Assembly: GCA_965223665.1 (NCBI GenBank) | Contig: OZ245011.1 | Location: 1,760,001-1,824,000 of the forward strand | Reading direction: 5' to 3' | Source of the DNA: Nitrospinaceae bacterium | Lineage (GTDB): Bacteria > Nitrospinota > Nitrospinia > Nitrospinales > Nitrospinaceae | Length of the DNA: 64,000 bases | Shown here: one piece after another, positions 58,528 to 63,899 of the stretch | How the letters are laid out: each line of letters begins with the position of its first letter | How positions within the stretch are numbered: position 1 is the first letter of the stretch | The notes under the pieces: model-generated | Database searches by the model: none | The model's input: the letters and a program-made list of their open reading frames with translations, nothing else | What the model was told of the DNA's origin: nothing | Translations under genes and position numbers: made by a program

Positions 58528-59250
58528 ATGATTAAGTTTTATCTCATTGTGACCAAAGTAATTTTAATTCCTACGCTCCTATTTTTATTCGTGGGTTTTT
58601 TAGCGTTATCGCGCACCAGCTTTGACTTTCAAAGCTTTGTCGCTCTAGATGACAATGATCCGGTCATTGATACCGCGCCATCCCTGCCTGCGAAATTTTG
58701 CCCCACTGGAGAAACGTTTATTAAATTGGACAGCCCGGGTAATATTTCATGTGTGCCTGTAAAGTTTCCTTATAACTGTTCACGCATCACGAGCGGTGCC
58801 AACTTAAGTGGATGTGACCTTCAGGGAAGAGATTTACAATATCACGATTTATCGGAAGTGACTCTTCAGGATGCTTTATTGATAGACTCGAATCTGGAAA
58901 GCGCCAATTTAACCCGTGCCGTATTATCCAACACAAATTTGAGTAACACTCGCTTAACTGGCGCAAACTTTTCAGGAGCCGACCTGCAGAACGCTAGTTT
59001 TGATGGGAATCTATCTCTGACACAAACCAATTTTTCGAACGCCAATTTGCAATTTGCAGACTTATCCCGAACGAATCTGTCTAATGCAATTTTATCTGGA
59101 GCCAACCTTACCGATGCCAACTTGCTGAACGCCGACTTGACCGGTGCCGATGTCCTCGGAGTGACATGGAGTAATACCTTGTGTCCCAATGGCACTAACT
59201 CAAATAGCCATCCTACCGGAGATTGCAGCGGCCAAGGCGGCGGATTATAG
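58528..59250 (+). CDS. Pentapeptide-repeat protein with N-terminal TM
   Basis: A[DN]L.. repeats and C-terminal TLCPNGT cap. Confidence 0.9.
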   Translation: MIKFYLIVTKVILIPTLLFLFVGFLALSRTSFDFQSFVALDDNDPVIDTAPSLPAKFCPTGETFIKLDSPGNISCVPVKFPYNCSRITSGANLSGCDLQGRDLQYHDLSEVTLQDALLIDSNLESANLTRAVLSNTNLSNTRLTGANFSGADLQNASFDGNLSLTQTNFSNANLQFADLSRTNLSNAILSGANLTDANLLNADLTGADVLGVTWSNTLCPNGTNSNSHPTGDCSGQGGGL

Positions 59251-59296: not shown

Positions 59297-59443
59297 TTAT
59301 GCCGAGAAGAAAGCCCAGGCCATAAAACCAAGAGCAATGGCAATCGCTGTAACGAACCCCGTATGAATAAAAATAGTTAACCAACGCGGCTCATGGTTAT
59401 AACTCAAATATTTAAAGATTCCTTTTTTGTTTGCTGTTTTCAT
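59297..59443 (-). CDS. 48-aa tail-anchored membrane protein
   Basis: RBS AGGAGG before ATG 59443. MKTANKKG... with a C-terminal TM. Confidence 0.65.
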   Translation of the reverse strand: MKTANKKGIFKYLSYNHEPRWLTIFIHTGFVTAIAIALGFMAWAFFSA

Positions 59444-59590
59444 GATTAACCTCCTTTTAAATGACCCTTCATAAAAAGGGATTATTAATAAACACAACTT
59501 GTTGAATCAGGAGACCCATGTATTCCCTCTTTTCTAAAGAGGGCCAGGGTGATTCACCTTAAGGAGTTTTCAAATTAACTAACATTTCTT

Positions 59591-60238
59591 TCAATCCAAC
59601 CATTCCACTTGTCCGGTGTCTAAATGATAAAACCCTGAAACCACCTTCACCGAACCGTCATAGACATGTTTATAGATCGACTCACTCATATGTTTGATAT
59701 CTTCACAGGTGAGACGCACATGCATTCTTGTCACTGCTTCCAAAGATTTCTTATTCGCCGCCTTGACTGCGGGAGTGAGCCCTTCCACCAGGCTGGGCAG
59801 GTAACCGGGAAGATTCTCATCTTCCATAGCCGCATGAATGGTGCCGCATTTCTGGTGACCCAAAACAACAATGAGCGACACTCCCAAATAATCCACCGCA
59901 TACTCCAGGCTGCCGAGATTCATATCATTGAGTATGTTCCCGGCAACCCGCACAACGTACAAGTCCCCCAGCCCGCAGTCGAAAAGAATTTCCGGAGTCA
60001 CCTGCGAATCCGCGCAAGTCAGAACTGCAGCAAAAGGGTATTGACCTGTGGACACTTCCCGGATCCGCTCCGGATCCTGGTTCGGCTTCAAAGAAGTGCC
60101 CATGAAGTGCCTTTGATTGCCTTCACTTAAAAGTGTGAAGGCATCCTTAACCAACGGGTTGCCCATTTTGTTTTTATTCCTTTTATTTTCCATTCTCATA
60201 GTTAACATTTTCATCTCCAAAATATCAGGCAAACCCAT
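59591..60238 (-). CDS. Beta-class carbonic anhydrase (Arg-to-Gln variant)
   Basis: EGNQR, GQYP, CADSQ, PEILFD, VRVAGN, LGSLEYAV, GHQKCG. True start is probably one of the downstream ATGs. Confidence 0.9.
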   Translation of the reverse strand: MGLPDILEMKMLTMRMENKRNKNKMGNPLVKDAFTLLSEGNQRHFMGTSLKPNQDPERIREVSTGQYPFAAVLTCADSQVTPEILFDCGLGDLYVVRVAGNILNDMNLGSLEYAVDYLGVSLIVVLGHQKCGTIHAAMEDENLPGYLPSLVEGLTPAVKAANKKSLEAVTRMHVRLTCEDIKHMSESIYKHVYDGSVKVVSGFYHLDTGQVEWLD

Positions 60239-60313
60239 TTCTTTTATATCTTGTGCCTGCGTTGGATAATCCCAAATCCTCAGGCGCGAAATTATTTATT
60301 TAAAAAAACCTGA

Positions 60314-60487
60314 CGGTTAGGCCAGTCGCCGATCCGGAAACTCAAAATCATCTCCGGATACCCCTTTTACTAAATTACCTGCCACCGTTGCGGCAATTTA
60401 TCCGGCTTCCATTCTGGCACCCGGTGCCAGAAAAAACTTTAACTACAATGGAATGGCGAAATTACAACCGCCCGACTGGCCCATCCG
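60314..60487 (-). ncRNA. Candidate structured cis-regulatory RNA (five-way junction) upstream of carbonic anhydrase
   Basis: GC-rich patch with a closing stem and four hairpins. The mismatches read as G-U wobbles only on the minus strand. Confidence 0.55.
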
Positions 60488-60693
60488 CTCCAATTCGATA
60501 TTTGAATTTTTGTATTCATTTTTTTTCAACTCAAACCCAAAATTCTTAAATATGGAACTGCGGTCTTGGGGGGGAAAGCCTCATTTCGGCTTACCCTTTT
60601 TACCTTTCTGTAAGTTTAGAGGTTAATTAGTTTATTAAGTTCCTTAAATGTTTTTATGATATAATTTGATTTAATTAAACATTAGGAGGGCCT

Positions 60694-61614
60694 ATGATCT
60701 GGTTGAATTATCAACATTTACGTTACTTTCAAGTCGTCGCGCAGGAAGGAAGTATCGTCCGTGCCTCCGAGAAATTGAACCTGGGACAACCGGCCATCAG
60801 CATCCAGCTCAAAGAATTGGAAAACCAACTCGGGCACACACTTTTTGAACGCAGAAACCGAAAATTAATTCTGACCCAGGCGGGAAAAGTGACTCTGGAA
60901 TACGCCAATCTTATTTTTAATTTGGGGGATGAGCTGAAAGAAGTTTTGCAGGATGGATCCTTCAAAAAGAAAGTGCACCTGGAAGTCGGGGTTCTGGACA
61001 GCATTCCCAAAACTATTATTCAACACCTGACCGATGCCGCTCGAGATTGGGGTCCGTGCACTGTAACCATTTTGGAAGGACCCGGCGATTTTCTTTTTCG
61101 GGAACTGTTAGCCCATCGAATAGATCTTGCGATTACCGACTACCAGCCTGATATTAGCGATGCAAAACGTTTTAACATTCGATCCCTGGGAAAACACAAA
61201 ATGACCGTATTCGGTGCGCGCAAATTCAAAAACCTTGCGAAAAATTTTCCGGCGTCGCTAAAGGGACAACCTTTTCTGCTACCGACACTTCACAGCAAAC
61301 GCCGGCACGACCTGGATCACTATTTCCAAACGCGCAAACTGAATGTGGAAGTGGCAATGGAAACGCAGGATATCAGTGTTCAAAAGTTGATGGGAATTTC
61401 CGGAATGGGTATGATTGCCGTTCCCGATTACGCCGGTCAGGGTTTGGTGAAGGACAAAAAACTGTTTCCCATAGGGGTTATGGAAAACGTTCACGAAGAA
61501 ACGTTTCTGGTGTCATCGCCAAGAACCATCACCAACCCCGTCGCTGATTTTCTGATGGAGGAGTTCGACCTGTTGTTCCACCAGGCCACCAAACCCGAAT
61601 CCTCAGAACTTTAA
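60694..61614 (+). CDS. nhaR: LysR-family regulator, NhaR-like
   Basis: WLNYQHLRYF..VA.EGSI.RA...L...QPAIS.Q and VGV.DSIPK are NhaR-type signatures. RBS AGGAGG. Confidence 0.75.
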   Translation: MIWLNYQHLRYFQVVAQEGSIVRASEKLNLGQPAISIQLKELENQLGHTLFERRNRKLILTQAGKVTLEYANLIFNLGDELKEVLQDGSFKKKVHLEVGVLDSIPKTIIQHLTDAARDWGPCTVTILEGPGDFLFRELLAHRIDLAITDYQPDISDAKRFNIRSLGKHKMTVFGARKFKNLAKNFPASLKGQPFLLPTLHSKRRHDLDHYFQTRKLNVEVAMETQDISVQKLMGISGMGMIAVPDYAGQGLVKDKKLFPIGVMENVHEETFLVSSPRTITNPVADFLMEEFDLLFHQATKPESSEL

Positions 61615-61733: not shown

Positions 61734-63899
61734 TTAATTTTGTCCGGCTCTTTGCAACATTTGGCGAATCTGATTTGTTTTGGCAACCTTAAGAGCGGTC
61801 TCGCCATTTTTGGTTTGAAGACTTACATTGGCTCCCTTATCCAGCAACAACTGAACTATTTGGGTAAAACCCCTCTCTGACGCCATCATTAAGGCCGACC
61901 ATCCTTCACTGGTTTGGAGATCTGCGTTGGCTCCCTTGTCTAATAACAACTGAACTATTTCGGGGGCGCCCTTTTCAGACCCTTTCATTAAAGCCGTCGA
62001 TCCCTTACTCGATTGGAGGTCTACGTTGGCTCCCTTATTCAACAACAACTTCAGTATTTCTGTATGACCTTCTTGAGACGCCATATATAAAGCCGTGAAT
62101 CCCCCATTGGATTGAAGATTCAGGTTTGCTGTCCTGTCTAAAAATAATTTCACGATTTCTGTATGACCATTCTTGGAAGCTATCATTAAGGACGTCCAAC
62201 CTTTATTGACTTGAAGATTTATGTCGGCTCCTTTTTCCAACAACAACTGCACTATTTGGGCATGACCGTTTTGTGACGCAACATATACCGGCGTCCATCC
62301 TTTGTCGACTTTTAGATTCGGGTCAGCCCCCTTATCCAATAACAACCGCGCTGATTCTGTATGACCATTTTGTGACGCTAAATATAAGGCGGTCCAACCG
62401 TCATTTGATTTAAGATCCGGCTTGGCTCCCTTGTCCAACAACAACTGCACTATTTCGCTATAACCCTTATCCGCGGCTATCGTTAAGGCTCTCCATCCGT
62501 CACCTGCGGGAAAATCTATATTGGCTCCCTTATCTAATAACAACTGCACTACCTGGGTATGCCCCTTATCCGAAGCTGCCATTAAGGCCGTAGATCCTTT
62601 TTTGGTTGGAATATCTGTGTTGGCTCCTTTATCCAGCAACAACTTCACGATTTCTGTAAAATTCTTTTGTGACGCTACATATAAAGCCGTCCATCCTTTT
62701 TTGGCTTGAAGATCGGTGTTAGCTCCCTTTTCCAGCAACAACTTGACGATTTCTGTACGACCAAACTCAGAGGCTACCATTAAGGCCGTCCACCCCTCTT
62801 TTGCTTGAAGATTGATGTTAGCTCCCTTATCCAGCAACATCTTCACGATTTCTGTTTGACCTACTTGTGACGCTACGTATAAGGCCGTGTATCCCTTATC
62901 AGATTGAAGATTTGCGTTGGCCCCCTTATCCAGCAACATCTTGACGATTTCTTTATGACCATCCTGGGCTGCCATATATAAGGCGGGTACTCCTTTTTTG
63001 GATTGAATATCTACGTTGGCTCCCTTATTCAATAACAACTCGACTATTTTTCCATGACCCTCCTGAGACGCAATTTTTAAGGCCGTCGCACCTTGATTTT
63101 CCTGCAAATCCACCTGGGCTCCCTTATCCAGCAACAACTTTACAATTTCTGTATGGCCATCCTTAGTCGCCAGCATTAGGGCCGTCCATCCGTTATCGGT
63201 TTGAAGATCTGTGTTGGCTCCCTTATCCAGCAACAACTGCACTATTTCTTTGCGTCCATCCTGAGACGCTCTCGTTAAGGCGGTCCATTTTTTATTTACC
63301 TGAAGATCTACGTTGGCTCCCTTACTCAGCAACAACTGGACTATTTTTGCATGACCCTCCTGAGACGCCAGATATAAGGCCGTCCACCCTTTGTTAGCTT
63401 GAAGATTTACCTTGGCTCCCTTGTCTAACAACAACTGCGCTATTTTTAAATGACCATACTCAGACACCACTATTAAGGCCGTCCATCCTTTATCGTTTCG
63501 AATATTTACATTTGCTCCCTTATCCAGCAACAACTGCGCTATTTCTGCAAAACCATTTTGTGACGCTATCATTAAGGCCGTCCACCCTTTCGTTGACTGA
63601 AAATTTACGTCTACTCCTTGTGACAACAATGATTTTACCTGCGCTATTTTATTATTAAATGTTGCCTCTATTAAGCGCCTTTCATTTTGAGATGAAGATA
63701 ATGGTTTGGCTTTTGAAGTTGAAAGAGGTTTATTGGAAAGGCTGGGGCTTTTTTGACTTGTCGAACAGGACGTTAAAAACAAACCTGCTAAAAAAATAAC
63801 GAGCAAAAAATATTTAGAAAGTAACTTAACGGTATGATCCGTACGGTTCGGGTAAGAGTATTGACGGGTTCCTTCCATTATCCTCAGATGCCTCCACAT
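61734..63899 (-). CDS. Ankyrin-repeat lipoprotein (~18 full repeats plus caps)
   Basis: 33-aa G.TAL..A...G...IV.LLL.KGA repeats and lipobox LTSC. Start uncertain. Confidence 0.92.
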   Translation of the reverse strand: MWRHLRIMEGTRQYSYPNRTDHTVKLLSKYFLLVIFLAGLFLTSCSTSQKSPSLSNKPLSTSKAKPLSSSQNERRLIEATFNNKIAQVKSLLSQGVDVNFQSTKGWTALMIASQNGFAEIAQLLLDKGANVNIRNDKGWTALIVVSEYGHLKIAQLLLDKGAKVNLQANKGWTALYLASQEGHAKIVQLLLSKGANVDLQVNKKWTALTRASQDGRKEIVQLLLDKGANTDLQTDNGWTALMLATKDGHTEIVKLLLDKGAQVDLQENQGATALKIASQEGHGKIVELLLNKGANVDIQSKKGVPALYMAAQDGHKEIVKMLLDKGANANLQSDKGYTALYVASQVGQTEIVKMLLDKGANINLQAKEGWTALMVASEFGRTEIVKLLLEKGANTDLQAKKGWTALYVASQKNFTEIVKLLLDKGANTDIPTKKGSTALMAASDKGHTQVVQLLLDKGANIDFPAGDGWRALTIAADKGYSEIVQLLLDKGAKPDLKSNDGWTALYLASQNGHTESARLLLDKGADPNLKVDKGWTPVYVASQNGHAQIVQLLLEKGADINLQVNKGWTSLMIASKNGHTEIVKLFLDRTANLNLQSNGGFTALYMASQEGHTEILKLLLNKGANVDLQSSKGSTALMKGSEKGAPEIVQLLLDKGANADLQTSEGWSALMMASERGFTQIVQLLLDKGANVSLQTKNGETALKVAKTNQIRQMLQRAGQN

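Follow-up and report, generated by a model that had tools for sequence, protein, structure and literature searches.

What kind of element occupies the spacer between a gene for a LysR-type regulator and a divergently oriented gene for a carbonic anhydrase in a 64,000-nucleotide (nt) stretch of the genome of a marine Nitrospinaceae bacterium (contig OZ245011.1, positions 1,760,001 to 1,824,000; hereafter, the window)? The original prediction, made from the DNA letters without database searches, placed here, on the minus strand, a new riboswitch-like RNA, namely, a five-way junction in the leader of the carbonic anhydrase gene, with an RNA under the control of the NhaR-like LysR protein as its second option. 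Judging from the comparison of the sequences, the element is real and evolves under selection as a structured RNA for which the minus strand is favored, is specific to a single genus, and qualifies as an orphan RNA candidate of moderate interest that matches no known family. As to what such an RNA would do, several readings compete, and the one that we tentatively favor is a self-terminating leader of the gene unit divergent from the LysR gene.

The minus strand from 60496 to 60302 folds into a single closed domain of ~190 bases, in which a long closing helix leads into a four-way junction with a nested three-way junction, and which ends in a run of seven U (U7). For 206 nt of the minus strand, ViennaRNA gives a minimum free energy of -78.0 kcal/mol, compared with -58.3 +/- 4.5 kcal/mol for shuffled sequences (z = -4.44, with none of 200 shuffles equal to the real sequence). 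The genome that contains the window (G000; 4.35 Mb, 98.6% complete) has a counterpart in a sister species of the same genus (G001), where the other copy of the element adopts the same fold at -76.6 kcal/mol (z = -4.17, again with 0 of 200 shuffles equal); given the shuffle results in both species, a chance fold is excluded. All comparative inference below draws on two sequences, the window copy and the G001 copy.

The stems of the original prediction are all found where it had placed them, that is, the closing stem formed by CGG.UGGGCCAGUCG (60487-60473) and CGACUGGCCUA.CCG (60328-60314), the hairpin GGCGG/UCGCC, the hairpin UUCCAU...AUGGAA with its apical CUGGCAC/GUGCCAG, and the stems UAAAUUGCC/GGUAAUUUA and AUCCGGAGA/UUUCCGGAU; ViennaRNA gives the same fold, and the U7 assigned to the position after the closing stem is present at 60308-60302. 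The junction, in contrast, has to be redrawn. A further stem, GCCGG/UCGGC (60406-60402 with 60332-60328), surrounds the last two hairpins, P3 and P4, so that the single five-way junction gives way to a four-way junction in which a three-way junction is nested. As delineated with ViennaRNA and RNAalifold, the arms of the four-way junction are the closing helix, P1, P2, and the sub-domain closed by GCCGG/UCGGC (60328..60406, minus strand), inside which P3, a purine-rich strand of 12 nt, and P4 are arranged around the three-way junction.

The closing helix, with ~22 base pairs (bp), consists of a core (60487-60474 with 60327-60314), which is unchanged between the species save for the bulged base at 60484, and an extension that continues outward (60496-60489 with 60312-60306) into the U7 run, pairs with the first three U of the tract, and is kept in G001 in another register; in the fold, the two strands of the helix thus extend over 60473..60496 and 60306..60328. 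In hairpin P1 (GGCGG/UCGCC; 60455..60472), 7 of the 8 loop bases are conserved, and in hairpin P2 (UUCCAU/AUGGAA and its apical stem; 60407..60453), 6 of the 16 bases of the internal loop are changed. The loop of P3 (60400-60371) is conserved in 7 of 7 positions and the purine-rich joining strand, GUAAAAGGGGUA (60370-60359), in 10 of 12; P4 (60358-60333) has a variable loop. Only 2 bases are left unpaired in the four-way junction, and one of these differs between the species. The element is also distinct in composition, with a G+C content of 43-55%, compared with 20-30% in the flanking spacer, and a G-rich minus strand. When the closing helix is blocked on either strand, the G000 and G001 copies adopt different folds, 14-19 kcal/mol worse, and share no common alternative. 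Two further pairing schemes were discarded: alternative GCCAG/CUGGC pairings (1:2 and 3:4), read by eye, comprise only 5 bp each, as opposed to 10 and 8 bp in the native fold, and a kissing pair between the loops of P1 and P3 (GUUG/CAAC) is broken in G001 by a G-to-U change.

The distribution of the differences between the two species bears out the fold. The 179-nt core of the element is identical at 154 of 179 positions; for comparison, among four-fold degenerate sites, 75 of 123 (61%) are identical in the LysR gene and 33 of 85 (39%) in a nearby pentapeptide-repeat protein gene. Substitutions between the species preserve the stems: in the fold computed for the window copy only, 6 of 116 paired positions differ, compared with 19 of 63 unpaired ones (Fisher p = 1.6e-5), and in the RNAalifold consensus fold, the counts are 3 of 108 and 22 of 71 (Fisher p = 1.2e-7), with the caveat that the consensus count is biased because pairs broken in one species drop out. 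When threaded on the fold of the window copy, the G001 sequence retains -65.9 kcal/mol, whereas the same substitutions scattered at random yield -47.7 +/- 6.4 kcal/mol, and only 0.14% of 5000 trials reach the real value.

The proposal that G-U pairs point to selection on a minus-strand RNA is supported as well. Such pairs account for 6 of the 54 consensus pairs in the window copy and are spread over five helices, and the minus strand folds at -78.0 kcal/mol, compared with -61.1 kcal/mol for the plus strand. On the minus strand, 6 pairs are hit by substitutions, of which 3 survive as wobble pairs and the 3 that are lost are all terminal; in the plus-strand fold, 5 pairs are hit, and none is kept. 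The GCCGG/UCGGC stem is a case in point: two adjacent pairs were changed one-sidedly (G-C to G-U and G-U to A-U) and are kept on the minus strand only, whereas the plus strand would have a mismatch in each species. These observations bear on the reading under which there is no RNA here at all, and the locus is either a DNA-level element, such as a cluster of protein-binding palindromes or the remains of a mobile element, or a fold that arose by chance. The plus strand indeed folds well (z = -5.09) and passes the threading test too, which is explained by the stems being palindromes, so that the strand call depends on the wobble pairs and on the 17 kcal/mol by which the minus strand is favored. 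Nevertheless, loops drift while stems stay, one-sided changes keep the pairs only as G-U on the minus strand, the shuffles speak against chance, and the element is a single-copy sequence with no match in viral contigs; we regard a non-RNA explanation as very improbable.

The search for relatives among known RNAs came up empty, as the original prediction of a minus-strand structured RNA without a known family implied. At gathering thresholds, Rfam 15 produced no matches in the whole window (the lysine, cobalamin, M-box, nhaA-I, DUF1646, yybP, c-di-GMP, 6S, SRP, and RNase P families included). At E <= 10, the locus in the window yields two chance-level hits outside the domain, which score 16.8 and 11.3 bits where the cut-offs are 70 and 60, and the G001 copy yields seven, all at 14-19 bits against cut-offs of 40-229 and likewise at chance level. 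ARAGORN detects no tRNA or tmRNA between 59000 and 61000. The check for a dispersed repeat confirmed that the element is single-copy: when the 4.35-Mb genome is searched by BLAST with the 211-nt element, only the element itself is retrieved, the next match being 23 nt long with an E-value of 0.066, and a covariance model has one match per genome in G000 and G001. Nor does any of the six frames look like coding sequence, with 4-6 synonymous compared with 17-23 non-synonymous codon changes. Two candidates of other kinds were considered by eye and rejected, namely, a leader peptide starting from ATG 60518, for which just 1 of the 11 codons that changed did so synonymously, the two species have different stops, and a Shine-Dalgarno sequence is lacking, and a sigma-54 promoter at CTGGCAC in the apex of P2, for which the spacing and the -12 element do not fit.

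The element appears to be confined to its genus. A DNA search of 41 related genomes detected it in G001 only, the other species of the genus. The covariance model, built from both copies over a 179-column alignment, scores 218 bits in G000 and 217 bits in G001 and finds nothing credible beyond these two among 102 genomes of the order and 120 genomes of the phylum. Even with filters off, the best match among eight LysR loci of other genera is 8.7 bits (E = 0.32), that is, no diverged copy is apparent there. In a metagenome scan with the LysR protein, seven loci were recovered, the best of them 69-70% identical and thus from other genera, with none from the genus of the element; an exact 21-mer scan of genome contigs retrieved the G001 contig only, and viral contigs contain 0 matches to the element. 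Contigs of four public runs that bear the locus carry two alleles only, the window type and the G001 type, with no third variant. In these runs (X1-X4, compared over 60150-60720 of the window), the alleles of both species co-occur in one sample, together with contigs from other genera, whose match is limited to the LysR box region. A 39-nt match in another genome (G002:C1:3020771-3020809; 85% identity, E = 5.4e-5) concerns an A/T-rich stretch just past the U tract and probably reflects low-complexity similarity.

The identity of the neighboring genes is the next question, and here, the original prediction requires revision. On one side is the LysR-type regulator gene (60694..61614, plus strand; Pfam HTH_1 and LysR_substrate), which is divergent from the RNA. 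The best NCBIfam match of its product is NhaR (NF008284, an equivalog family) at 139.3 bits, under the 219-bit cut-off, with CynR at 84.7 bits, hence the designation NhaR-like only. Beyond it, and adjoining the LysR gene, lies a gene (61734-63899, minus strand) for a 721-amino acid (aa) lipoprotein-like protein that consists almost entirely of ankyrin repeats. On the other side, downstream of the RNA, is the gene for a beta-class carbonic anhydrase (59591..60238, minus strand; Pfam Pro_CA, E = 4.6e-33), whose start is uncertain, with ATG codons at 60238, 60208 (with GGAG 7 nt upstream), and 60166. The element had been assigned specifically to the leader of this gene; however, G001 retains the element and has no carbonic anhydrase gene at the locus. 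The breakpoints are at ~60262 and 59465 in the window (59465-60262, compared with about 1445-1500 in the G001 locus, L010), and homologues of the enzyme number three in G000 and one in G001, the only detectable one of G001 being located elsewhere in its genome. Because a LysR-carbonic anhydrase pair is present, with the element absent, in G029, a member of another family, the sequences suggest that G001 lost the enzyme gene. Two further features of the original prediction hold in part: the GCCUG/CAGGC/UGCCUG repeats exist, but G001 has no counterpart of the sequence in which the proposed mutually exclusive pairings fall, and the hairpin at 60569-60597 is present, although it lies within a stretch that is poorly conserved in the sole homologue.

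The last gene of the unit (59297..59443, minus strand) encodes a single-pass membrane protein of 48 aa. The gene is clearly real: the protein is 88% identical in G001, with many codon differences that are silent at the protein level, and homologues are present in 15 of the 102 genomes of the order. The family, as represented by the window copy and loci L030-L039, has a length of 47-49 aa and the motif FKYLSYxNEPRWLNIFIHxGF; neither Pfam nor NCBIfam has a family for the protein, and a search of a large protein collection came back empty. In G001, it is this gene that comes first after the element, ~55 nt on, and in another genus (g2; G009 and G012), the same small membrane-protein gene is also part of the LysR-divergent unit, behind a secreted-protein gene. 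From these gene orders, the stable partners of the element are the LysR gene and the gene for the small membrane protein; carbonic anhydrase is not among them. The pentapeptide-repeat protein gene on the far side (58528-59250, plus strand) evolves much faster than the LysR gene, with 192 of 241 protein positions identical between the species, compared with 289 of 307 (four-fold degenerate sites, 33 of 85 and 75 of 123).

The proximity of the membrane-protein gene raises the issue of whether the element is simply the structured 5' untranslated region of a small hydrophobic peptide resembling type I toxins, one that would keep the mRNA of the 48-aa protein translationally inert or stable, with carbonic anhydrase as a later passenger. 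The mRNAs of type I toxins typically carry long folded leaders, and the distance of ~55 nt in G001 fits. The peptide, however, belongs to a conserved single-copy family, with 37-65% identity outside the genus and varied genomic contexts; the regions upstream of seven other peptide loci are neither comparably structured nor homologous (the best z values are -3.3 and -2.5, and the rest are weaker), and the covariance model has no match at E <= 1 in the genomes of those loci. We therefore deem this scenario exceedingly improbable.

How, then, might the element be expressed? Adjoining the LysR start codon, a stretch of 88 nt (60606..60693), referred to here as the LysR control region, is conserved across Nitrospinaceae families, as seen in an alignment of ten loci. 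Within this region lie a palindromic box, TTAAG-N3-CTTAA (60635-60647), the plus-strand sequence TGATATAAT, a putative -10 element in the right place for the LysR promoter, and, toward the minus-strand side, the conserved CTCTAAAC-TTACAGAAAG. By analogy with LysR-type regulators in general, the region would be a shared operator with back-to-back promoters, with a LysR box plus promoter, and a LysR-dependent start on the minus strand might lie near 60600. A conserved region with TTAAG-N3-CTTAA, TGATATAAT, and CTCTAAAC-TTACA is found upstream of the LysR gene in loci L010-L017, L023, and L024. The divergent cargo beside LysR varies by genome: it can be carbonic anhydrase, a secreted protein with repeats (of which there are two kinds), or the small membrane protein.

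Between the control region and the domain, two minus-strand segments can be distinguished. The first (60561..60605) is poorly conserved, with identity at 26 of 45 aligned bases and a further 8 gap columns, contains the hairpin AAGCC-GAAAUGA-GGCUU, and is scored as terminator-like on the plus strand by a scan. The second (60497..60560), an A/U-rich segment immediately upstream of the domain, is identical to G001 at 56 of 62 aligned bases; it could be the promoter or operator of the RNA or else part of a longer transcript. By eye, it offers a weak promoter candidate, TTGAGT-17-AAAAAT, from which transcription would start near 60499, right at the base of the helix.

At the 3' end of the domain, the anatomy is that of an intrinsic terminator: a stable, G+C-rich helix with a U tract immediately after it. 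The helix abuts the U7 tract (60302..60308, minus strand) in the window and UUAUUUUU in G001, and in both, the outer helix reaches the U tract, via different pairings. Given that the helix runs straight into the U tract, the two together are predicted to be, most likely, an intrinsic terminator. Canonical hairpin-plus-U terminators occur elsewhere in the genome, and a terminator scan also flagged a small alternative hairpin, CUGGC-CUAACC-GUCAG, before the U7 tract. Along the same strand, a start codon is next reached after ~95 nt in the window (counting from ATG 60208) and ~55 nt in G001, and the scan for promoters turned up no promoter-like site between the element and that codon.

Because the element is located 55-95 nt before the next start codon, without a promoter-like site in between, the reading that we favor, as a possibility rather than a firm conclusion, is a self-terminating leader of the LysR-divergent unit that releases a stable short RNA and allows read-through to the downstream genes. 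Under this scenario, we infer, transcription would begin in the LysR control region, under LysR control, and would mostly stop at 60302-60308; a discrete, stable RNA would be released, ~195 nt long if the start is near 60499 and ~300 nt long if it is near 60600; and read-through alone would reach the downstream genes, that is, carbonic anhydrase and the 48-aa membrane protein in the window and the membrane protein only in G001, with termination versus read-through as the putative regulated step. The second option of the original prediction, an RNA controlled by the NhaR-like LysR protein, remains plausible.

Several observations weigh against this scenario. All four public runs that contain the locus derive from a single sample within one study, and none of them is recorded as RNA. 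A predicted terminator with a folded domain of 150 nt as its loop is unusual, and efficient termination would leave the expression of the downstream genes unexplained. No sigma-70-like promoter passes the threshold in a scan of the minus strand at 60497-60620 or of G001, and the spacing of the TTGAGT-17-AAAAAT candidate is altered in G001 by a 2-nt indel. As for the RNA itself, the success of the plus strand in the threading test belongs on the same side of the ledger, and so does the fact that, in the two sequences, none of the 54 pairs is changed on both sides, which means that there is no true covariation yet.

The main rival to the self-terminating leader is a separate gene for a small RNA (sRNA) that acts in trans, comparable to GcvB/GcvA, with a promoter of its own just upstream, a start near 60499, and its own terminator; the gene would be activated by the divergent LysR protein, its RNA would pair with mRNAs elsewhere, and the downstream genes would be expressed separately. 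Much of the anatomy is compatible with such an sRNA gene: the element (60496-60302, minus strand) stands head to head with the LysR gene (60694-61614, plus strand) across a shared control region, the 5' and 3' ends are paired and followed by a U tail, the fold is highly stable, with no alternative conserved between the species, and the element is intact in G001 even though the carbonic anhydrase gene is gone. The 64 nt upstream, identical at 56 of 62 positions, are conserved as expected of a promoter or operator, and conserved single-stranded segments are available as candidate seeds, namely, the P3 loop (7/7), the joining strand (10/12), and the P1 loop (7/8). Yet the 98.6%-complete genome has no match to Hfq (PF17209), and a separate sRNA gene implies that the downstream genes need promoters of their own, whereas the scan detected no promoter-like site for those genes, which follow 55-95 nt on, or for the RNA itself. 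On balance, a trans-acting sRNA is somewhat unlikely.

The idea of the original prediction, a ligand-sensing RNA, can be formulated as a new class of terminating riboswitch or attenuator. The ligand of its junction domain would be bicarbonate/CO2, a cation, or a signal linked to pH, and the closing helix of the aptamer would itself be the terminator, stabilized on binding such that the downstream genes are turned off. Such a riboswitch would respond to an inorganic-carbon, pH, or ion signal alongside the NhaR/CynR-like sensor and control the 48-aa protein and, in one species, carbonic anhydrase. The size and multi-junction architecture resemble those of large aptamers, the element is placed like a 5' leader and ends in what resembles a terminator, the purine-rich joining strand (10/12) and the P3 loop are conserved, and both the carbonic anhydrase gene and the gene for the NhaR/CynR-like regulator adjoin it. 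The case is weakened, however, because G001 has the element without the enzyme gene at the locus, there is no alternative fold common to both species (with the cost of 14-19 kcal/mol for blocking the closing helix), the junction spacers are minimal and partly variable (one of the two bases in the four-way junction, and 19 of 63 unpaired positions overall), and the range is limited to one genus. Riboswitch classes are normally widespread, whereas this element is present in just 2 of the 120 Nitrospinota genomes searched. Furthermore, the unit already has a protein sensor, LysR, and a limited literature search gave nothing on a riboswitch linked to carbonic anhydrase. Sensing of a ligand by the element itself hence seems improbable.

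If transcribed as predicted, the element would be the first structured regulatory RNA known to us in Nitrospinota, a major phylum of marine nitrite oxidizers; a limited literature search found no paper on such an RNA in Nitrospina or Nitrospinota. If the favored self-terminating leader is correct, an entire multi-junction domain would serve as the 'loop' of a terminator behind a LysR-controlled promoter. The value of the case is bounded by the two uncultured genomes, the only ones from which the element is known.

Comparison with known systems brings out both what is familiar about the locus and what is distinctive. In the arrangement of genes, it recalls cynR-cynTSX of Escherichia coli and nhaR-nhaA, in which a LysR-type regulator controls a neighboring operon for carbonic anhydrase or ion homeostasis, given that a NhaR/CynR-like LysR gene adjoins a beta-class carbonic anhydrase gene, a pairing also seen in G029. 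The LysR protein of the window, however, falls under the NhaR cut-off (139.3 compared with 219 bits), those two systems are not known to have a structured RNA placed between the regulator and what it controls, and here, the RNA is kept even where the carbonic anhydrase gene is missing.

In the leader itself, the closest likeness is to terminating riboswitches and attenuators, such as the lysine riboswitch, a five-way junction of similar size: here too, a large junction fold in the 5' leader is followed by a helix and a U tract before the genes. The differences are that the element has no Rfam hit, no separate expression platform or conserved alternative fold, and a range of a single genus, and that its closing helix itself would terminate transcription, with junction spacers that are minimal and partly variable.

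Finally, in enterobacteria, the gene of the OxyS sRNA is divergent from that of OxyR, its LysR-family activator. The locus shares with OxyS/OxyR and GcvB/GcvA the placement of the element divergent from a LysR-type gene, the shared control region, the length of ~200 nt, the several stem-loops, and the end formed by a helix and a U tract. For GcvB, one report describes the sRNA gene gcvB as divergent from gcvA, which encodes a LysR-family activator (PMC1557403). In contrast to GcvB and OxyS, the element has no sequence or Rfam match, no Hfq was found in the genome, protein genes follow 55-95 nt on along the same strand, and activation by LysR is predicted only. The shape differs as well: the whole element is one closed multi-junction domain and not a succession of hairpins that leaves a seed region open.

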